From the NCBI GenBank assembly GCA_028718945.1, contig JAQUKT010000003.1:624-64623 (forward strand): 64,000 bases of DNA, given 5' to 3'. Source of the stretch: Actinomycetota bacterium. GTDB lineage: Bacteria; Actinomycetota; Geothermincolia; Fen-727; JAQUKT01. The translations under genes and the position numbers were made by a program. This document shows positions 2,578 to 64,000 of the stretch, piece by piece. The notes beneath the pieces are model-generated. The model had not been told where the DNA came from. It ran no database searches and was given only the letters and a program-made list of their open reading frames with translations. Numbering within the stretch: the first letter of the stretch is position 1; every line of letters begins with the position of its first letter.

Positions 2578-2604
2578 GGGGTCAGGTCTTGCAATAACAC
2601 ATTT
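2578..2604 (+). repeat. REP-like repeat, arm A (GGGGTCAGGTCTTGCAATAACACATTT), solo copy
   Basis: Same 27-mer recurs at 9842, 15217, 62221 and 63117 on the + strand and at 15275 and 51822 on the - strand. This copy artificially extends the pdxS ORF upstream ([12 protein letters not shown]). Confidence 0.8.
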
Positions 2605-7698: not shown

Positions 7699-9925
<2,227 letters not shown>

Positions 9926-10038
9926 ATGACACATGATCCGGAAAATGTTCTTGAGAGCTTGAGATAAAATGACAAACGGTTTTTCTTCATCTATCATAGT
10001 CGCATGTATTTGATGATTGATGGAAAGGAAGATGAAAC

Positions 10039-11860: not shown

Positions 11861-13039
11861 GTGAGACAAGTGCCTGTTCGGCGGAACATTGATTTCGTTG
11901 GAAAGAAATATATCTGGTTTGCGATATCTGGAGTAGCCATACTCGTTTCAATCATTGGACTTTTTACCCGTGGCTTGAATTTCGGAATCGATTTTACTGG
12001 CGGCACTCAGATGGAAATAAGGTGCGACAAGGAAACGACCATTTCCGATATTCGTAAGGTTTTATCGCGCTTCGGTTTCGGAGACGCTCAGATACAGCAG
12101 GGTCAATCAAACACTTTTATCATAAGAACGCCAAATCTGTCGGAGCAAAAAAGAAACGAAATCACTGCCGAATTGAAGAAAAGCGCTAAAATGAAGGATT
12201 TGCTCGGTATTAGTGATGTTGGACCCGGATGGGGCGCTCAGGTCAGCAGGCGGGCTATTATTGGTGTCATTATCTTCCTGGTTGCAGTGGTTTTATATGT
12301 GAGCATTCGCTTTGAGTTCAAGATGGCAATATCTGCAATTGTTGAGATATTTCACGACACTATCATAACGGTTGGAGTCTATGCCCTTATCGGGCGGGAG
12401 GTCACACCTGCTACTATCATCGCATTTCTCACCTTACTTGGATATTCGCTTTATGACGCGATTGTGATTTTCGATAGATTGAAGGAAAACGCGGATGCGC
12501 TCACCAGGCAGAGTAAAAAGACATATAGTGATGTAGTAAATGACTCGGTCAATCAAATTCTCGCAAGGTCTATTAACACCTCTCTTACAACACTTTTTCC
12601 TATTGTTACAATTTTGCTATTTGGTGGCGAGACCCTGAAGGCTTTTGCCTTCGCTCTCTTTCTCGGTGTTTTGACAGGAACGTACTCGAGCATATTCGTA
12701 GCGACGCCAATGCTTGCTATCTGGAAAGAGTCTGAGCCGAAATATGCCACTTTCCGCGAAAAGGTTGAAAAAGAGCGGGTAAGAGAGAGAAGAACAGTCG
12801 AGCAAAATGTTGCTACCAACAGGGTAAGGGTTCAGGAAAAGCAAGCAAAAACAAATGAGGAGCCTTCTGCCATGGAGAAGCCTGCAAAAGAACCTGCAAA
12901 GGTTGTGAGAATAAACGAGGAAAGAGAATCGCGGAAACCCACGCCAAAGCCGAAGCCAAAAGCGAAAAGCAAGCAAACTTCCGCCAAAGCCCGAACGAAG
13001 GGTCCCGGGAGCCGGAAAAAGAAAAAGAAAAAGCGATGA
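11861..13039 (+). CDS. secF: Protein translocase subunit SecF with Lys/Pro-rich C-terminal extension
   Basis: GIDFTGGTQMEIR SecF N-terminus and conserved TM core; tail KPTPKPKPKAKSKQ...RKKKKKKR. Confidence 0.9.
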   Translation: MRQVPVRRNIDFVGKKYIWFAISGVAILVSIIGLFTRGLNFGIDFTGGTQMEIRCDKETTISDIRKVLSRFGFGDAQIQQGQSNTFIIRTPNLSEQKRNEITAELKKSAKMKDLLGISDVGPGWGAQVSRRAIIGVIIFLVAVVLYVSIRFEFKMAISAIVEIFHDTIITVGVYALIGREVTPATIIAFLTLLGYSLYDAIVIFDRLKENADALTRQSKKTYSDVVNDSVNQILARSINTSLTTLFPIVTILLFGGETLKAFAFALFLGVLTGTYSSIFVATPMLAIWKESEPKYATFREKVEKERVRERRTVEQNVATNRVRVQEKQAKTNEEPSAMEKPAKEPAKVVRINEERESRKPTPKPKPKAKSKQTSAKARTKGPGSRKKKKKKR

Positions 13040-15237
13040 AAAGCGATGAAAATGTGAACAGGCTTTTTTCATTGACGAAGAAATTCCTTTCCAAGAGCGA
13101 ACAGAAGAAGCTCGAGAAGGCATACCAGTTCGCTTTTGAATGCCACAAGGACCAGTACAGAAAATCGGGAGAGCATTTCATAGAGCACCCTTTGACTGTC
13201 GCCACCTATCTTGCCCAGTTGAAACTCGATGCCGATACGATCTGCGCCGGGCTTTTGCATGATGTGGTGGAAGATTCAGAACTAACTCTCGATGATGTAA
13301 GAGAAGAGTTTGGCGAAGAAATATCGAGCATAATTGATGGCCTTACAAAACTGGAAAGATTCAGATTCAACTCGAGAGAAGAACAGCAGGCAGAGAACAT
13401 GCGCAGGATGCTGATTGCGGTTGCGAAAGATGTGAGGGTTATTCTTGTCAAACTTGCTGACAGACTCCACAACATGGAGACAATAAGCGCTCTTCCATCT
13501 GACCGCAGGCGTGAGATAGCTGAGGAAACACTCGAGATTTATGCTCCCCTTGCTCACAGGTTTGGAATTTCACAAGTCAAGTGGAGGCTGGAGGACCTTT
13601 CTTTCGAGGTTCTTCACCCGGAAAGATACCGTCAGGTTCAGGAAATGGTTGCAGAGAAGCGCCGGGAGAGGGAAAAGTACTTAGGATCGATCGAGAAGAA
13701 AATAGAGACTGAATTGAGGAGGAACAAAATAAAGGCGAGTGTTAGCGGAAGGGTAAAGCATTTTTTCAGCATATACGAGAAGATGGTCAATCGTGGAATC
13801 GAGTTCGATGAAATAATGGACCTTTCTGCTGTCCGAGTGATAGTTGAGTCAATCAAGGATTGTTATGCTGCTCTTGGGATAATTCATTCAATCTGGAAAC
13901 CGGTTCCGGGTCGGTTCAGGGATTATATCGCCATGCCAAAACTCAACATGTATCAATCTCTTCATACCGTGGTGATGAGCCATGATGGAAAACCGATTGA
14001 AATCCAGATAAGAACGAAGGAAATGCACAGGACAGCTGAGTTTGGGATTGCCGCGCACTGGCTCTACAAGGAACAGAAGAGAGAACACCACGGTAAAGCC
14101 TGGCTGAAACAGGTGATGGACTGGCAGGAGATGAAGGATCCCACCGAGTTCATGCGAACCCTGAAAATAGAGCTTTTCCAGGATGAGGTATTCGTTTTCT
14201 CCCCCCGGGGGAAACTCATTTCGCTGCCCAAGGGAGCAACTCCGATTGATTTTGCGTATCAAATACATACGGAAGTTGGGCACAGTTGCATCGGGGCAAA
14301 GGTGAATGGGAAGATGGTTCCTCTGTCCTATGAACTTCAGAATGGCAATATTGTGGAGATAATTACATCAAAGACGCCTCACGGCCCGAGCATAGACTGG
14401 CTTCAGATTGTTAAGAGCGCCCGGGCAAGATCGAAAATACGGCAGTGGTTCAGCCAAGAGAGACGCGAGGAGGAAAAAGAGGAGGGAAGGGAACTTCTTG
14501 AGCGCTCCTTGCGAAAGACGGGTTTGCCTGTTCACTCCCCTGAAGTCTCCAAGATCCTTTCACAGGTAGCATCTGAGTGCCATGCTGAGAGATTGGAAGA
14601 CCTTTATGTTCTTATCGGGTGTGGTCAGGTCTCAACAAATCAGGTAGCCAGCAAAGTCTCGCAATATCTTGGCGTAGGTAAAAGAGAGACAATCATTCCT
14701 GAAAAGGAAGAGCCAAAAAAACCCCCCGAAAAAGAGAAATTCACCCGCAGAATCATTGTAAACGGAATTGAGAATGCATTGGTTCAGATTGCGCAGTGTT
14801 GCAATCCCGTTCCAGGAGATAAGATAGTTGGATTTGTGACCAGGGGAAGAGGGGTTTCTGTTCATAAGGAAGGCTGCCCTAACTTCAAAGAACTTTCAAT
14901 AGACAGTGAAAGGATATTGGATGTTTCATGGGAGAAGGTTGAACCTGTAAGAGTTGTCGAGATATGCGTAAAGGCAATCGACAGACCCAAACTCGTGCGG
15001 GACATCACAGTTGTCCTTGGTGACCGCAATGTGAACATAATATCGGCGGCTTTCTCGACCAATTACGAAAACCTCGCTGTAAGTAATTTTGTGTTCGAAG
15101 TTGCAAGCGGAGCCCACCTCGACGAGATATTGCGTGAAATAAGAAAGGTTGACTCCGTCTACGATGTTTTCGAGGTTACTGGCGAGAAAGTTGGTGACAA
15201 AGGCGAATCCGGGACAGGGGGTCAGGTCTTGCAATAA
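13036..15237 (+). CDS. rel: Bifunctional (p)ppGpp synthetase/hydrolase RelA/SpoT family
   Basis: HD domain (HPLTVA...LLHDVVED), synthetase domain, TGS and ACT regions; 733 aa. Last codons run into the REP unit at 15217. Confidence 0.9.
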   Translation: MKSDENVNRLFSLTKKFLSKSEQKKLEKAYQFAFECHKDQYRKSGEHFIEHPLTVATYLAQLKLDADTICAGLLHDVVEDSELTLDDVREEFGEEISSIIDGLTKLERFRFNSREEQQAENMRRMLIAVAKDVRVILVKLADRLHNMETISALPSDRRREIAEETLEIYAPLAHRFGISQVKWRLEDLSFEVLHPERYRQVQEMVAEKRREREKYLGSIEKKIETELRRNKIKASVSGRVKHFFSIYEKMVNRGIEFDEIMDLSAVRVIVESIKDCYAALGIIHSIWKPVPGRFRDYIAMPKLNMYQSLHTVVMSHDGKPIEIQIRTKEMHRTAEFGIAAHWLYKEQKREHHGKAWLKQVMDWQEMKDPTEFMRTLKIELFQDEVFVFSPRGKLISLPKGATPIDFAYQIHTEVGHSCIGAKVNGKMVPLSYELQNGNIVEIITSKTPHGPSIDWLQIVKSARARSKIRQWFSQERREEEKEEGRELLERSLRKTGLPVHSPEVSKILSQVASECHAERLEDLYVLIGCGQVSTNQVASKVSQYLGVGKRETIIPEKEEPKKPPEKEKFTRRIIVNGIENALVQIAQCCNPVPGDKIVGFVTRGRGVSVHKEGCPNFKELSIDSERILDVSWEKVEPVRVVEICVKAIDRPKLVRDITVVLGDRNVNIISAAFSTNYENLAVSNFVFEVASGAHLDEILREIRKVDSVYDVFEVTGEKVGDKGESGTGGQVLQ

Positions 15238-15303
15238 CACATTTACCGACCCATTCTTAACAAGGCAGATAGAAAAATGTGTTATTGCAAGACCTGACCC
15301 CCC
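15217..15303. repeat. Complete palindromic REP-like unit: arm A, 30-bp loop, inverted arm A (perfect 27-29 bp inverted repeats)
   Basis: GGGGGTCAGGTCTTGCAATAACACATTT...AAATGTGTTATTGCAAGACCTGACCCCCC read directly; lies between the rel stop and the dtd start. Confidence 0.85.
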
Positions 15304-32388: not shown

Positions 32389-32931
32389 TTGATTTTGAAC
32401 AACAAGTTCAAAATTCTTGTGACGGGACCATATAACTCGGGGAAGACAACATTCATAGGAACAATAAGCGAAATTCAGGTTGTATCTACCGAAAAAAAAT
32501 TGAGGAGTGCTCAAGGAACTACAACTGTGGCAATGGACTATGGAAGAATAACGTTGAGTGATGGAGATGTTATTCACCTTTATGGGACACCGGGTCAGGA
32601 AAGATTTGATTTCATGTGGAGAATTCTTTCAAGGGGGATTCTCGGTTACGTTGTGCTTGTTGATGGAAGCGATCCGGGGGCTTTCGCTCAAGTCTCAAAA
32701 ATTATTGATGTTTTTTCTAAGATGACTGATGCCCCGTACGTTTTATGTTTGACCCGTGCCGATCTTAGGGATTGCGTCTCTTCGGAAGAGGCAAGAAGGT
32801 TTATTAGGGCTTCCGCTGATGTAGATATCCTCGAATGCAATGCGAAGAGTAGAGAGGATGTGAGGGATGTCATAGTGTCTCTTCTTGAAAGAGTCATTGA
32901 GAGTATGGAGGCTAAGTGTTTCGTTCCATAG
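32389..32931 (+). CDS. Small Ras-like GTPase, COG2229 (CvnD/MglA-related) type
   Basis: P-loop GPYNSGKTT, TTVAMDYGRI, LYGTPGQERFDFMW and VVLVD match Roadblock-associated COG2229 GTPases. Confidence 0.75.
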   Translation: MILNNKFKILVTGPYNSGKTTFIGTISEIQVVSTEKKLRSAQGTTTVAMDYGRITLSDGDVIHLYGTPGQERFDFMWRILSRGILGYVVLVDGSDPGAFAQVSKIIDVFSKMTDAPYVLCLTRADLRDCVSSEEARRFIRASADVDILECNAKSREDVRDVIVSLLERVIESMEAKCFVP

Positions 32932-33076
32932 ATACGGTGTCGTATAGAGAGAGCGTCGAGGTGCCGCTCCCGCAAGGCGCGCGACCAACGCGTACTTCTG
33001 TTGTACTCGGAGGGAGCGGAACGCTCTTCTGTGGATAGATCGGCGATTGAATGCAACCGTATTTATGGAATGGAGC
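32914..33076 (-). repeat. ~160-bp GC-rich element with 18-bp terminal inverted repeats, copy 1 (minus orientation)
   Basis: About 90% identical to the reverse complement of 48908-49067; TIR CCGTTCCATAAATACGGT / ACCGTATCTATGGAACGG. Confidence 0.8.
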
Positions 33077-33131
33077 ACTAAGGAAAACAGGATGACTTCA
33101 CTTCACGCTTGAATTCATAAAGAGGTGGAAG

Positions 33132-45409: not shown

Positions 45410-45433
45410 GGGGTCAGACCTTCATTTTTGGTG
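45410..45433 (-). repeat. REP-like repeat arm B, minus orientation (GGGGTCAGACCTTCATTTTTGGTG on + strand)
   Basis: Reverse complement of arm B at 9903 and 55246. Confidence 0.75.
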
Positions 45434-45520
45434 TTTTTCCATCTAATCGGCGCGTTTTGCTATAGCGTTAGTGTTATCTCGAAGATTTTTTTGAGAAGAC
45501 CTTGAATGTTCAAGGGAGTT

Positions 45521-48897: not shown

Positions 48898-48907
48898 GCT
48901 TGCTGCC

Positions 48908-49067
48908 CCGTTCCATAAATACGGTTGCATTCTATCGCCGATCCATCCACAAAAGAGCGTTCCGTTCCCTCCGAGTACAACAGAAGTACGCGTCGGTCGT
49001 GCGCCTTGCGAAAGCGGCGCCTCGACGCTCTTGGTACGATACCGTATCTATGGAACGGAACACTTGA
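48908..49067 (+). repeat. ~160-bp GC-rich TIR element, copy 2 (plus orientation)
   Basis: See copy 1 at 32914-33076; ORFs predicted through both copies give similar peptides only because the DNA is repeated. Confidence 0.8.
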
Positions 49068-51821: not shown

Positions 51822-51848
51822 AAATGTGTCATTGCAAGACCTGACCCC
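51822..51848 (-). repeat. REP-like repeat arm A, solo, minus orientation
   Basis: CAAATGTGTCATTGCAAGACCTGACCCC is the reverse complement of arm A. Confidence 0.8.
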
Positions 51849-55110: not shown

Positions 55111-55245
55111 GATGACCTTTCTTGACTTACATTTGAAATGTTAACATTCTGCTGGGACATTTATTTTTCAACTTTCTTCTGTTTTCCTCCGAATACTCGA
55201 ACAAAGGCAAATAAAGGCAAAAAAGAGTATAATTCAAAAGAGAAA

Positions 55246-55269
55246 CACCAAAAATGAAGGTCTGACCCC
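55246..55269 (+). repeat. REP-like repeat arm B
   Basis: CACCAAAAATGAAGGTCTGACCCCC is identical to 9903-9925. Confidence 0.75.
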
Positions 55270-61639: not shown

Positions 61640-61657
61640 CATTTGATGTATCTTAAA

Positions 61658-61688
61658 AGGACCGGCTCAGAGCCGGTCTTTTTTATAT
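61658..61688 (+). terminator. Rho-independent terminator after the minor-pilin operon
   Basis: GACCGGC-tcaga-GCCGGTC followed by TTTTTTATATT, directly after the 61639 stop. Confidence 0.65.
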
Positions 61689-61735
61689 TGGTTGTTTTTT
61701 TGATAATATCTACATGTTTGAAAAGGAGGCGGAAG

Positions 61736-62221
61736 TTGAGATTTTTTGCATTAAGGAAAGGGCTTGCGTTTCTGCTCGTTTTTCTCTTCATTGCTGGATT
61801 TTCGGGTTGCGGGCGGAGTGTGGATTCCTACAAGGCGGAATACAAAAAAAGGCTCGATTCTTTCGAGGATAGAGTCACGAAGGACGACAAAAAAGTTGGA
61901 GGGCTGATTTCGAAAAATGACATAGCGGGGGCTTTGAAGGAAATAAGAAGGAGAGTGCGTGATGTTGATTCCTTTACCACTAAGATGATTGACATGCTTC
62001 CGCCGGATGAGCTTCAAAGAGTCTATATCCTTACCCTCTATTACCTCTCCTGCCTTGCCAGTCAACTCGAGGCGCAGGAAAGCTGGCTTGACGCCGCAAT
62101 TGCGGGAAAGCCAACCAATGATTTGCAGGAAATCGTGAAGAAAGAAGCGGGAAAAACAAAGTTTGCCGGTTCTGAACTTGCCATTGAACTTCAAAAGCAG
62201 GGAATCACCCTCAACAAGTAG
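61736..62221 (+). CDS. Hypothetical lipoprotein
   Basis: TTG start after AGGAGG; signal MRFFALRKGLAFLLVFLFIAGFSGC (lipobox). The longer ORF from 61643 merely translates the terminator hairpin. Confidence 0.5.
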   Translation: MRFFALRKGLAFLLVFLFIAGFSGCGRSVDSYKAEYKKRLDSFEDRVTKDDKKVGGLISKNDIAGALKEIRRRVRDVDSFTTKMIDMLPPDELQRVYILTLYYLSCLASQLEAQESWLDAAIAGKPTNDLQEIVKKEAGKTKFAGSELAIELQKQGITLNK

Positions 62222-62246
62222 GGGTCAGGTCTTGCAATACGACAAT
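62221..62246 (+). repeat. REP-like repeat arm A, solo
   Basis: GGGGTCAGGTCTTGCAATACGACA immediately after the lipoprotein stop. Confidence 0.8.
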
Positions 62247-62291
62247 TTTATGTAAACCAAGTCATTATTTTGAAAGAGAGCAGAGAAAAGC

Positions 62292-63149
62292 ATGAATCGC
62301 TGCGAAAAACACCCCGATGAAGATTCAATGGTTACCTGCATGAGTTGTGGAAGGAACTTCTGCAGAATCTGCCACCCGCTCCTCGGTGCCGGTCAGTATT
62401 GCCCGAGGTGCCATGAGGAATACATCGAGAAGCTCGGGAAGGGCGCCGAAGCGATTCCAGTCGAGCAAAAAGGCAAGTCAAAATCTCTATTGAAATCTCT
62501 TGTCGAGAAAATCAAAAGATTTTTCAGCGCCGTGCCGAACGCGATTCTTTCCGCTTTGAGGAAATGCGCGAAGTTCTTTGTTTTTATTGCTCACCTTCCG
62601 GTAAGGATTTTCAGAAGAGTCGCAAGCGAAATCAAAGAACACTTCCCGTTTTCTCTCGCTGAAAGAAAGGATTTATCAGATATATCAGTTTTTCAAAAAA
62701 TCTGGTGGAAGCTCGTCATCTCTCTTTTTTCGGGTCTTATTCTATGGGTTATTGTGGTTATGATTTTCCACCAGAGGAATCCAGCCTTTTCGCTTGTAGT
62801 TTCAGCCATTGTTGCTTTTTTTGTTTCCTTCTTTTTTGGCTGGGAATTCGGGGTTCCAGTCGGAATACTTTCATGCCTCGTTGTGCTTGGAGCGCTTTCG
62901 CTTGGTGAAGTAGTGGCACAGGTCTTGTGCAGGGCGAAAATATTGAGACTAAACGATGTTCAAACCATAGGTATCGTTCAGCTTGGGAGCAAGGAAACAT
63001 TTGGATTTTCGTTTGTCATCAAGGTAATTCTTCAAAGGCTTCTTCCCTCGGCAGCGCTTGCCTTCCTGATAGGCTACTGGCCGCTTCCCAAGCGCCCTGC
63101 CTGGCGCGGCTGGCATGGGGTCAGGTCTTGCAATACGACAAAATCTTGA
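62292..63149 (+). CDS. Zinc-ribbon/B-box-like N-terminal domain membrane protein (hypothetical); 3' end overlaps a REP copy
   Basis: CEKHPDE...CMSCGRNFCRICHP...YCPRCH Cys/His pattern followed by ~4 TM helices; last 11 codons (WHGVRSCNTTKS) lie in the repeat. Confidence 0.5.
   Translation: MNRCEKHPDEDSMVTCMSCGRNFCRICHPLLGAGQYCPRCHEEYIEKLGKGAEAIPVEQKGKSKSLLKSLVEKIKRFFSAVPNAILSALRKCAKFFVFIAHLPVRIFRRVASEIKEHFPFSLAERKDLSDISVFQKIWWKLVISLFSGLILWVIVVMIFHQRNPAFSLVVSAIVAFFVSFFFGWEFGVPVGILSCLVVLGALSLGEVVAQVLCRAKILRLNDVQTIGIVQLGSKETFGFSFVIKVILQRLLPSAALAFLIGYWPLPKRPAWRGWHGVRSCNTTKS
63117..63143 (+). repeat. REP-like repeat arm A, 20 nt upstream of the RAYT start
   Basis: GGGGTCAGGTCTTGCAATACGACAAAA. Confidence 0.8.
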
Positions 63150-63162
63150 TTATGATGTATGC

Positions 63163-64000
63163 ATGGCGAGACCATTAAGAATAGAATTTCCCGGTGCTGT
63201 TTATCACATTACTGCGAGGGGAAACGCGAAGCAGGACATTTTTCTCGATAATAAAGACTTCCTTGATTTTCTTTATATCCTATGTTCTGTGGTCAAGAGA
63301 TATAACTGGATTTTGCATGCATACTGCCTCATGAGCAACCATTATCACCTTCTGGTAGAGACTCCCGAGGGAAATCTTTCAATAGGAATGAGGCAACTGA
63401 ATGGAACATTCACCCAGCAGTTCAACCGAAGACACAAGAGGGTTGGGCACCTTTTCCAGGGCAGATACAAAGCGATTCTCGTGGATAAGGATAGTTACCT
63501 GCTTGAACTTTGCAGGTATATTGTGTTGAACCCTGTAAGGGCTGGAATCGTAAGAAGCCCAAAGTATTGGCAATGGAGCAACTATAGAGAAACAGCCGGG
63601 TACGGGAGAGAGATTCTCTGCCTGACGAGAGAGTGGACACTTCTTCAATTTGGCAGAAAAAGAGAAGGGGCTGAGGAGCAATACAGGCAGTTTGTGCATG
63701 AAGGGTTGAAGGAAGGTGCGCCCTGGGAAGGAGTAAAGGGGCAAATATATCTCGGGAATGATGAATTTCTCAAGCGGATAGACACGTTGATAAAAGGCGG
63801 AGAGACCTTGAAGGAGGTGCCAAAAGCGCAGCGATATATAACAAAGCCGGAACTCAAGGATATATTCAAACATAAAGGGGGTAAGGTAGATCCGCTTGAA
63901 GCGTACGAAGCTCATGTTCGATATGGATACACGTTAAAAGAGATAGCCGAACACCTCGGTGTGCATTACGCCACAATCAGCAGGGCTTTGAAGAGGTTGG
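63163..64000 (+). mobile_element. REP-associated tyrosine transposase (RAYT, IS200/IS605 Y1-HuH family) with C-terminal DnaA-C-like HTH; partial, continues beyond window
   Basis: Own translation: MARPLRIEFPGAVYHITARGN...MSNHYHLLVETPEGNLS (HuH motif) ...YKAILVDKDSYLLELCRYIVLNPVRAGIV (catalytic Tyr helix, RAYT signature) ...GYTLKEIAEHLGVHYATISRALKRL. Open to window end, hence absent from the ORF track. Confidence 0.8.

Follow-up and report, generated by a model that had tools for sequence, protein, structure and literature searches.

The window, that is, the whole stretch of 64,000 nucleotides that was analysed, ends inside a gene on the + strand. The gene starts with an ATG at 63163 and stays open up to base 64000, which leaves 279 codons within the window (Table 1). 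The NCBI protein P0001, encoded on the 64,695-bp contig, is 282 aa long and shows 100% identity to the windowed gene product; the window therefore omits just the last three residues, EER, and the stop codon, which according to the P0001 match lies about 10 nt past the window end. An earlier sequence-only reading had described a HuH/RAYT gene on the + strand running off the window end, and this is what we see, three codons short of the full protein. As that reading had also noticed, the gene is not found in the list of open reading frames, because there is no stop codon inside the window.

Table 1. Features of the gene at the window end and of the repeat arms (window coordinates).
Feature	Position	Strand	Remarks
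CDS of TIRYT / RAYT-like Y1 HUH protein	63163..64000	+	codons 1-279 of 282
HuH motif NHYHLLVE, residues 59-66	63337..63360	+	H60, H62 invariant in family; aligned to HuH of 4ER8
Catalytic-tyrosine helix YIVLNPVRAGIV, residues 119-130	63517..63552	+	Y119, N123, P124 invariant
C-terminal three-helix HTH, residues about 244-282, truncated by window edge	63892..64000	+	HTH_23 match; AF2 helices
Left arm (terminal inverted repeat), left-end subtype ...AATACGACAA	63117..63143	+	18-nt invariant head GGGGTCAGGTCTTGCAAT = 63117-63134
Promoter-like site: -35 TTGCAA 63128-63133 (inside arm), 17-nt spacer, -10 TATGAT 63151-63156	63128..63156	+	promoter scanner match
Arm A, same left-end subtype as 63117 arm, direct repeat	62221..62247	+	with 63117 arm brackets ORF 62292-63149
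Solo arm A (...AATAACACATTT)	2578..2604	+	
Arm A, left half of hybrid A/B inverted dimer	9842..9868	+	tip + flank micro-duplicated: AAAGATGGGGG AAAGATGGGGGTCAGG
Arm B (TGGGTCAGACCTTCATTTTTGGTGT), right half of hybrid A/B dimer	9902..9926	-	
Arm A, left half of perfect 28-nt inverted dimer, 30-nt spacer	15218..15244	+	dimer hairpin -34.4 kcal/mol, z -9.9
Arm A, right half of perfect inverted dimer	15275..15301	-	
Solo arm A (...AATGACACATTT)	51822..51848	-	
Solo arm B	45410..45434	+	
Solo arm B	55245..55269	-	

Judged by its sequence, the gene product is an intact RAYT-like Y1 HUH protein that keeps both the HuH motif and the catalytic tyrosine. An alignment of 25 family members has 72 invariant columns, with H60, H62, Y119, N123 and P124 among them. 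The Pfam profile Y1_Tnp (PF01797) gives 48.4 bits (cut-off 23), which places the protein in the Y1 HUH superfamily, and the NCBIfam equivalog NF047646 (REP_Tyr_transpos) gives 88.1 bits on the 279-aa fragment against a cut-off of 80; thus, the Y1_Tnp and RAYT-group profile searches that the sequence-only reading had proposed both end above the cut-off. None of the IS200-type NCBIfam models matched the protein. Its best relative in the PDB is the E. coli TnpA_REP (4ER8), which was reached by the family profile only (E 0.005); a phmmer search of the single protein against the PDB gave no match. The HuH motif and the RAYT-type tyrosine helix recognised by eye are conserved on alignment and align with their counterparts in 4ER8, and the catalytic tyrosine is followed by a serine motif, WxWS, at residues 136-139.

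At the C-terminus, the full-length protein matches HTH_23 with 25.5 bits (cut-off 24.6). Bac_DnaA_C (PF08299) matches weakly in 10 of the 25 family members (best E 0.0088), and for P0001 it is not among the best 25 of the 32 Pfam families with E<=1. Thus, of the "DnaA-C-like HTH" claimed before, the C-terminal HTH stands, and the likeness to DnaA-C is only weak: we see a short, generic HTH_23. An AlphaFold2 model calculated from the 25-sequence alignment reached a mean pLDDT of 55, with only the HTH helices at 70-87; the fold is therefore supported by the sequence alone.

Directly before the gene there is a copy of a repeat that we call an arm. The repeat string GGGGTCAGGTCTTGCAATACGACAAAATC spans 63117-63145, and the part that is conserved in the family stops at about 63140-63143, which gives a gap of 19-22 nt between the end of the arm and the ATG. 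The previous statement that a "REP arm A copy" is found 20 nt upstream of the start is thus right as far as the repeat and its position are concerned; its identity as a REP is not upheld. Counted from its first base, the arm begins 46 nt before the ATG, and in 27 of 28 homologous loci this distance is 45-48 nt. Furthermore, the -35 box of the gene seems to lie inside the arm. The ATG is found 6 nt past the -10 box TATGAT, and since this leaves no space for a Shine-Dalgarno site, we infer that the mRNA is leaderless. The upstream regions of the homologs look alike in this respect: in 23 out of 28, TTGCAA is followed at 16-18 nt by a TAnnnT, which is separated from the ATG by 5-8 nt.

The arm is repeated many times in the window. 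Its 18-nt head occurs in 7 exact copies in 64 kb (0.09 expected), a number reached in 0 of 100 shuffled sequences. Besides the left arm of the gene there are 6 more copies of arm A and 3 copies of a second type, arm B, giving a total of 10 arms versus one single gene copy of the family. The arms are intergenic and occur as solo copies, as inverted dimers and in one hybrid dimer; several of them extend into the 3' end of an ORF or make long hairpins. Arm B (GGGGTCAGACCTTC...) was absent from all 139 fetched loci, which cover no part of the window itself, and neither in the window nor in any fetched locus were we able to find a cognate gene for it. Scans of the window for tRNA genes and Rfam families were empty.

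Do these arms represent REP elements? The sequence-only reading had proposed a REPtron-like arrangement, and a classical REPtron would be a RAYT gene flanked by REP hairpins that are cleaved at the hairpin foot. The protein does indeed pass the NCBIfam equivalog named "REP-associated tyrosine transposase" and has a RAYT-type catalytic helix, and the repeats are extragenic and dense. More specifically, it shares with the E. coli system (TnpA_REP, REP/BIME; 4ER8; Ton-Hoang 2012, Messing 2012, Corneloup 2021) the HUH/Y1 core, an alignable Y-x-x-x-N-P-V-x-x-G helix, the inverted copies of a presumably genome-wide extragenic repeat that would bracket the gene, and the presumed action in trans on non-autonomous repeats. 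However, the defining feature of a REP is contradicted: single arms do not fold (DNA MFE 0 to -0.7 kcal/mol, no better than shuffled sequences), and it is the dimer that makes a strong hairpin. We found no GTAG-type or CGTC tag in the repeat, the head of which is GGGGTCAG. The protein, 282 aa including the HTH, is 117 aa longer than the 165 aa of E. coli TnpA_REP. The head is shared by several phyla, whereas a given REP family goes with one particular tnpAREP (Quentin 2018, PMC6006769); the same study reports the subclass 2.1 genes, discussed below, with "no REP-like sequences" adjoining them. An unfolded unit without the tag and with a head common to many phyla does not bear out the REPtron-like arrangement, and we consider a classical REPtron highly improbable. 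Dimers such as 15218-15301 resemble REPINs (Bertels and Rainey 2011) in that two inverted units and a short spacer form a long hairpin, but the halves are not themselves palindromic, and in some dimers the flank extends the palindrome.

The coupling of the repeat to the gene, on the other hand, which the sequence-only reading had also claimed, is confirmed: the same spacing recurs in dozens of unrelated genomes and is therefore not a coincidence. Homologous loci of more than 12 phyla carry this 18-mer 45-48 nt upstream of the ATG; between phyla the 18-nt head stays identical, and the proteins are 46-75% identical. When loci were picked by the 18-mer, a homolog adjoined the arm in 23 of 115 among the matches listed. 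When loci were picked by the protein, an arm preceded the ATG in 16 of 19, a count which takes in heads with one mismatch as well as lineage-variant arms with other spacings. Where the 3' flank is visible, which is the case in 12 metagenome homologs, an inverted arm follows at the stop codon in every one; three further loci (L141, L140, L142) have it too. The complete order of arm, gene and arm is present in the closest homolog (L141, 75% identity), in a tandem gene pair (L140) and, with variant arms, in a copy on a Legionella plasmid. Among the cultivated carriers are Methylomonas subterranea SURF-2, Arsukibacterium ikkense GCM72 and Legionella adelaidensis. Chance matches of the 18-mer across phyla were ruled out: more than 115 stretches were found versus about 17 expected in 2 x 596 Gb, and the matches agree at positions 22-25 (RCAT) as well, occur as dimers and lie next to the gene. 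In the fetched loci about a third of the arms are in dimers. The density of arms differs between the carriers of the gene; for example, one 20.8-kb locus has 3 arms, all of them at genes, and the window has 10 in 64 kb. Carrying the gene is thus not enough for the arms to be dispersed.

An arrangement of this kind has been described before. Di Nocera, De Gregorio and Rocco (2013; BMC Genomics 14:522; PMC3733652) report RAYT-like genes between long terminal inverted repeats (TIRs) that share GGGGWSAS and that are found at similar distances from the CDS, with genomic TIR copies that are single, dimeric or grouped. Here, too, we see a RAYT-like Y1 HUH gene, a TIR with an outer end (GGGGTCAG at 63117) that fits GGGGWSAS at the distance typical of the family, and scattered TIR copies, which within the window are single, dimeric and grouped; and the protein is longer than RAYTs and has a C-terminal HTH (282 aa, HTH_23), as a TIRYT does. 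The system thus belongs to an already described class (TIRtron/TIRYT) and does not consist of classical REP elements, and we think it probable that the locus itself is the left end and the gene of a TIRtron. Compared with PMC3733652, the arm density in the window is high (10 per 64 kb, versus families called "moderately abundant"), and the 18-nt identity across phyla, the embedded promoter and the duplications of tip and flank are not reported in the text of that paper used here. Of the TIRYTs, 20 out of 26 fall in TnpA_Y1 subclass 2.1, the second largest subclass, with HTH_23, HTH_28 or Bac_DnaA_C at the C-terminus (Quentin et al. 2018, BMC Genomics 19:475; PMC6006769). We place the present protein in subgroup 2.1.2 based on domain architecture and TIR type rather than on its position in a tree: it is a long Y1 protein with an HTH_23/HTH_28/Bac_DnaA_C-like C-terminus and a serine motif after the catalytic tyrosine, with no REP hairpins nearby. 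A search for TIRYT/subclass 2.1 proteins at E<=1e-30 returned 3,077 clusters at 50% identity.

The arm tip is often duplicated in tandem together with its flank: such [flank + tip] duplications were found at 29 of 232 arms (0.02 expected), and in 16 of these 29 the break falls after GGGGTC(A). From these breakpoints, cleavage would be placed near arm position 7/8. Flank sequence extends the palindrome in 7 of 36 dimers; the sequences suggest that some dimers arise locally by inverted duplication. Target-site duplications were seen in 1 of 36 dimers and in 0-1 of 27 gene units, and their lack indicates Y1-type rather than DDE-type chemistry. For the same reason we rejected the idea that the arms are DDE-type MITEs. 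The 12 nt flanking the arms carry no information and hold no conserved target motif; hence, an IS608-like conserved insertion target was rejected as well. With the IS200/IS605 TnpA proteins (IS608, ISDra2) the system has in common the Y1 HUH chemistry and the lack of a target-site duplication, but it does not belong to them: those elements have subterminal hairpins and, 5' of the left end, a fixed target of 4-5 nt, and their proteins measure about 140-155 aa, whereas here we find true terminal inverted repeats, no target motif, 282 aa and no match to an NCBIfam IS200 model.

Potentially, the whole arm-gene-arm unit could be an insertion sequence that is autonomous and spreads horizontally; the arms found elsewhere would then be its MITE-like deletion derivatives and solo ends, and not repeats that a resident, domesticated gene takes care of. 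Horizontal spread fits an 18-nt head that is identical in more than 12 phyla while the proteins are 46-75% identical; some dimers (L046, L019) pair a left-subtype with a right-subtype arm, as expected for internal deletion derivatives; multi-copy or tandem genes are known (L140, L097, L112), and one copy resides on a mobilizable Legionella plasmid. However, the window has one gene copy versus 10 arms, plasmids seldom carry homologs (11 of 72,556 records), arms that are more conserved than the protein are unusual for the ends of an insertion sequence, and there is neither a target-site duplication nor a target motif. Furthermore, simple deletion does not account for the perfect dimer at 15218-15301, which is symmetric (right/right). 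On balance we find this explanation rather unlikely.

Alternatively, the protein may be a domesticated DNA-binding regulator or a site-specific nicking protein, with arms that are operators or portable promoters and not mobile DNA. The HTH is the best conserved part outside the catalytic core, the palindromic TTGCAA in the arm serves as -35 before the gene in most homologs, and the arms are intergenic. Yet the invariant HuH and tyrosine argue for retained catalysis, and the local duplications at arms, both tandem and inverted, point to broken and rejoined DNA; in addition, several arms run into the 3' end of an ORF or form long hairpins. A role of the solo arms as portable promoters is unsupported in the window, where we found no -10 box at 16-18 nt from them. 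Taken together, this makes the regulator a quite improbable explanation.

For the TIRtron, we can outline how the parts would work together. A TIRYT gene (Y1 HUH with a C-terminal HTH) between two inverted arms of about 25 nt starting GGGGTCAG would form a unit of about 0.93 kb. The right (3') arm of the present copy lies beyond the window end; we expect it, in the form ...AAATGTGT[TC]ATTGCAAGACCTGACCCC, no more than about 40 nt after the stop codon, at roughly 64,015-64,060. On double-stranded DNA, the HTH would bind the body of the arm (GGTCTTGCAAT...), which is specific to the lineage, and the HUH/tyrosine centre would nick single-stranded DNA in or beside GGGGTCA, the head that the arms share. 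The enzyme would work in trans and copy or move arms and arm dimers without a target-site duplication, a step that is modelled on the presumed action of RAYTs on REPs and REPINs. The left arm would also provide the promoter of the gene with its -35 box, leading to a leaderless mRNA, and by binding its own arm the protein would autoregulate its gene. It is plausible that the enzyme mobilises the dispersed arms; it may propagate the repeat, and the system may be active or recently active, as the sequence-only reading had it. In the literature searched we found no demonstration of binding, cleavage or transposition by any TIRYT. HUH enzymes normally require a hairpin or a guide sequence in single-stranded DNA. 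A solo arm offers neither, and outside the arms there is no conserved target motif; both points count against the explanation outlined here.

A different, and in our opinion unlikely, possibility is that arm and enzyme are parts of a single pan-bacterial system built on an invariant DNA site of about 18 nt, in which a nick after GGGGTCA seeds local copy events and not cut-and-paste. These events would be tandem [flank + tip] duplications, tandem arm arrays with a period of 33-35 nt, and fold-back inverted dimers that include the flank. If this is true, then the genesis of the repeats differs both from the "peel-and-paste" of IS200/IS605 and from the REPIN model, and the arm is at once a cleavage site, an operator for the HTH and the -35 box of a leaderless gene.

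In summary, the dispersed arms and the gene belong to a known class; two side observations stand out, the invariance of the arm across phyla and the frequent tandem duplication of tip and flank. The annotation label "REP-associated tyrosine transposase" merges two different kinds of repeat systems. In the Y1 HUH superfamily, the TIRYT/subclass 2.1 proteins form a branch that is very large, and in the literature searched we found no member with a substrate or an activity. This locus is a clean test case: its gene is intact, its site is defined to 24-27 nt, and there are many genomic copies of the site. Furthermore, the cross-phylum invariance of the arm together with the recurrent breakpoint after GGGGTCA suggests specific oligonucleotides as substrates and predicts where they would be cleaved.

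The transposase-like gene lies on the + strand, opens with an ATG at 63163 and continues for 279 sense codons until the window ends. As the sequence-only reading had said, it is missing from the ORF listing because no stop codon falls inside the window. A protein search returned P0001, an NCBI MAG protein of 282 aa from a 64,695-bp contig, with 100% identity over all 279 residues; the window is therefore without only three codons (EER) and the stop. Both motifs quoted in that reading are present (see the table), and its RAYT-family call comes close: the protein passes the cut-offs of Pfam Y1_Tnp (48 bits against 23) and of NCBIfam NF047646, "REP-associated tyrosine transposase" (88.1 bits against 80), and matches none of the IS200-type NCBIfam models.

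An alignment of 25 homologs (59-75% identity) has 72 invariant columns, among them H60, Y61, H62, R118, Y119, N123 and P124. The best solved relative of this alignment profile is E. coli TnpA_REP (PDB 4ER8, E 0.005), with HuH opposite HuH and crYvvlNPVraG opposite vdYIyiNPVkhG. The C-terminal ~40 residues form a three-helix HTH. Such a domain had been noted as "DnaA-C-like"; the HTH itself stands (HTH_23 on the full protein, 25.5 bits against a cut-off of 24.6), while for the DnaA label there are weak Bac_DnaA_C matches in 10 of the 25 relatives. The AlphaFold2 model (pLDDT 55) was too uncertain for use. The family is very large, with 3,077 clusters (50% identity) at E<=1e-30.

Features of the transposase gene, the arms and other repeats, in the window and in related loci (L numbers)
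Feature	Position	Strand or remark
HuH motif NHYHLLVE	residues 59-66	+ strand gene
Catalytic-helix motif YIVLNPVRAGIV	residues 119-130	+ strand gene
Arm upstream of gene, GGGGTCAGGTCTTGCAATACGACAAAATC	63117-63145	+
Arm B copies	9902-9926, 45410-45434, 55245-55269	
ORF 8711-9922	stop 9920-9922	stop inside arm
ORF 13036-15237	stop 15235-15237	stop inside arm
ORF 61643-62221	stop 62219-62221	stop inside arm
ORF 62292-63149	stop 63147-63149	stop inside arm; last 11 codons encoded by 63117 arm
Copies of ~170-nt element	32914-33082 (+), 48899-49065 (-)	bracket type-IV-pilus-like gene block
Tip+flank duplication, window example	9824-9849	
Tip+flank duplication, loci	L006, L020, L038, L048, L049, L060, L065, L085, L087, L103, L106, L109, L122, others	
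Head-to-tail arm arrays	L003 10-95, L020 1191-1224, L058 1796-1848, L083 7876-7911, L106 4887-4950	
Dimers with inverted-complementary flanks	L064 3189-3350, L066 6033-6113, L059, L011, L007, L028, L061	

The repeat copy directly upstream of the gene does belong to a recurrent family, as had been claimed: the 18-nt head of this arm (arm A) has seven exact occurrences in the window, against 0.09 expected, and none of 100 shuffles reaches seven. Arm B (GGGGTCAGACCTTCATTTTTGGTGT, three occurrences) shares only the GGGGTCAG head with arm A; its cognate gene was not found in the window, and arm B itself is absent from 139 related loci. All ten arm copies in the window sit at gene boundaries, and four window ORFs take their stop codon from an arm. 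The name REP given to this repeat was wrong. Single arms are not self-complementary, and their ssDNA folds (0 to -0.7 kcal/mol) are no more stable than those of shuffled sequences; lacking both hairpin and GTAG tag, the arm unit is not a REP. It is the dimer that resembles a REPIN: two arms at 15218-15301 form a perfect 28-nt inverted dimer (-34.4 kcal/mol, z -9.9), and a hybrid dimer at 9842-9926 sets arm A opposite arm B. A classical REPtron, in which the transposase would serve true REPs, is contradicted by the missing hairpin, and we regard it as highly improbable.

Two arms of the left subtype (…AATACGACAA) bracket ORF 62292-63149 in direct orientation (62221-63145); its product is a zinc-ribbon and transmembrane protein. 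The remaining dispersed arms of the window belong to the subtype with which homologous units end on the right (AAT[AG]ACACATTT). In the homologs P0019, P0054 and P0111 the transposase ORF runs into its own right arm, where TGCAAGACCTGA is translated as the terminal ...CKT*. The window also contains two copies of a non-coding element of ~170 nt, inverted relative to each other, separated by 15.8 kb and 83-90% identical; Rfam gave no match for it, even at E<=1. Since the changes from one copy to the other (CTCCC>CTTTC and GGGAGCGG>GGGAACGG) seem compensatory, the element may be a structured RNA or a leader. Furthermore, two direct repeats at 30-596, one of 57 nt (72% identity) and one of 71 nt (90%), share a 306-nt offset and probably reflect a tandemly duplicated segment at the window start.

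We scanned one genome per species for the exact 18-nt head and obtained more than 115 stretches. Those among the matches listed come from Pseudomonadota, Nitrospirota, Nitrospinota, Acidobacteriota, Gemmatimonadota, Methylomirabilota, Actinomycetota, Planctomycetota, Elusimicrobiota, Patescibacteria, Bipolaricaulota and others, three isolates included. Although chance would give ~17 hits in the whole collection, the matches across phyla are, judged by sequence and context, clearly homologous, because among those listed arm positions 22-25 read RCAT (C in 82%, A in 85% of copies), one third of the arm copies form head-out inverted dimers and a gene homolog adjoins the arm in 23 loci. Conversely, starting from the protein, we scanned metagenome contigs. 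Where the 5' flank is visible (19 homologs), an arm precedes the ATG in 16; in 12 of these the 18-nt head is exact or has one mismatch, about 46 nt upstream of the ATG, and the other four have lineage-variant arms, some at different distances (32 or 78 nt). An inverted arm lies at or just past the stop in all 12 homologs with a visible 3' flank. The arm-gene-arm layout recurs around the closest homolog (L141, 75% identity), at a tandem gene pair (L140) and around a 45%-identical copy with variant arms (GGGTCAGGCCTTGCC) on a Legionella adelaidensis plasmid. Of 28 distinct loci, 27 have their ATG 45-48 nt from the start of the arm; in the window the distance is 46 nt. In the tandem pair (L140 9955-11764) the two genes are 93% similar; each has its own left arm, only the second is followed by a right arm, and the neighbourhood includes a DDE transposase and a phage-type integrase. 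More divergent proteins retain the GGGGTCAG head next to a different arm body (e.g. GGGGTCAGATCTTGAAAC, GGGGTCAGTTCTTTAC, GGGGTCAGAGTGAATT), a pattern which the sequence of arm B in the window fits.

RAYT-like genes bracketed by long terminal inverted repeats with a common GGGGWSAS, with similar TIR-CDS distances and with single, dimeric or grouped TIR copies in some genomes, were named TIRtrons, and their proteins TIRYTs (Di Nocera et al. 2013, PMC3733652). TnpA_Y1 subclass 2.1 takes in 20 of 26 TIRYTs; C-termini of subgroup 2.1.2 are HTH_23, HTH_28 or Bac_DnaA_C-like, and no REP-like sequences were found beside subclass 2.1 genes (Quentin et al. 2018, PMC6006769). Repeats as abundant as REPINs were detected for RAYT groups 2 and 3 alone (Bertels et al. 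2017). The locus shows every TIRtron feature testable in the window, and we file it as a member of this class, not as a REPtron. Its precise class is thus already described; in the cited literature we found no description of an 18-nt arm invariant across phyla, an arm-embedded promoter or tip+flank duplications. In the literature searched, neither a later paper using the term TIRYT nor a biochemical study of such a protein turned up.

Rearrangements at the arms may bear on what the enzyme does. Tandem duplication of the outer flank together with the arm tip, [X+tip][X+arm], is seen at 29 of 232 arms, against 0.02 expected in shuffles. The duplicated tip is the first 2-14 nt of the arm, most commonly GGGGTC(A) (16 of 29), and the duplication may mark a nick site; it also occurs at right ends of gene units (L117, L119, L125, L129). 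There are also small head-to-tail arrays with a period of 33-35 nt, made of whole arms and ~9 nt of flank. Of 36 short inverted dimers, 7 have a palindrome that reaches at least 4 nt into the flanks (4-12 nt; control mean 0.8), which suggests that some dimers originated when a solo arm folded back and was duplicated locally, flank included. A purely regulatory role of protein and arms is unlikely, because HuH and Tyr are invariant and the rearrangements are of the breakage type. Target-site duplication is lacking (a single case among 36 dimers, 0-1 among 27 gene units), and no conserved target motif was found outside the arms. Potentially, the unit could be an autonomous IS that spreads horizontally and leaves MITE-like derivatives, as arm identity across phyla, dimers of left-type with right-type arms, tandem genes and the plasmid copy would allow. 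We consider this doubtful: the window has a single gene against ten arms, homologs are rare on plasmids (11 of 72,556 records) and the arms are more conserved than the protein.

For a TIRtron, the established basis of a mechanism is conserved catalytic residues, a fixed arm-gene geometry, inverted arms around homologous genes and arms dispersed in the genome. It is plausible that the enzyme mobilises the arms. The GGGGTCAG head recurs in every lineage and the body varies from one lineage to the next, which suggests an arm in two parts, a catalytic head and a binding body, the latter likely read by the near-invariant HTH. Cleavage would probably occur near arm position 7/8, judging from the tip+flank duplications, and the flank-extended palindromes suggest that some dimers may form locally. 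TTGCAA within the arm would serve as the -35 box of the gene: a promoter scanner reports TTGCAA-N17-TATGAT in the window, and 23 of 28 homologs have TAnnnT 16-18 nt downstream of TTGCAA and 5-8 nt upstream of the ATG. A Shine-Dalgarno site would not fit into this space, so a leaderless mRNA is expected. By binding its own arm, the protein could repress its own gene. Upstream of some homolog genes (L120 72-100, L133, L138) an inverted repeat of 9-10 nt, ATATAACAT-N5-ATGTTATAT, pairs the inner left arm with the -10 region; it is absent from the window copy and is a possible subterminal hairpin or operator. These steps appear consistent with HUH nick-and-rejoin chemistry. Together, the cross-phylum arm, the embedded promoter and the tip+flank duplications make a concrete prediction for the first biochemistry of a TIRYT, in an enzyme class that is large and uncharacterised.
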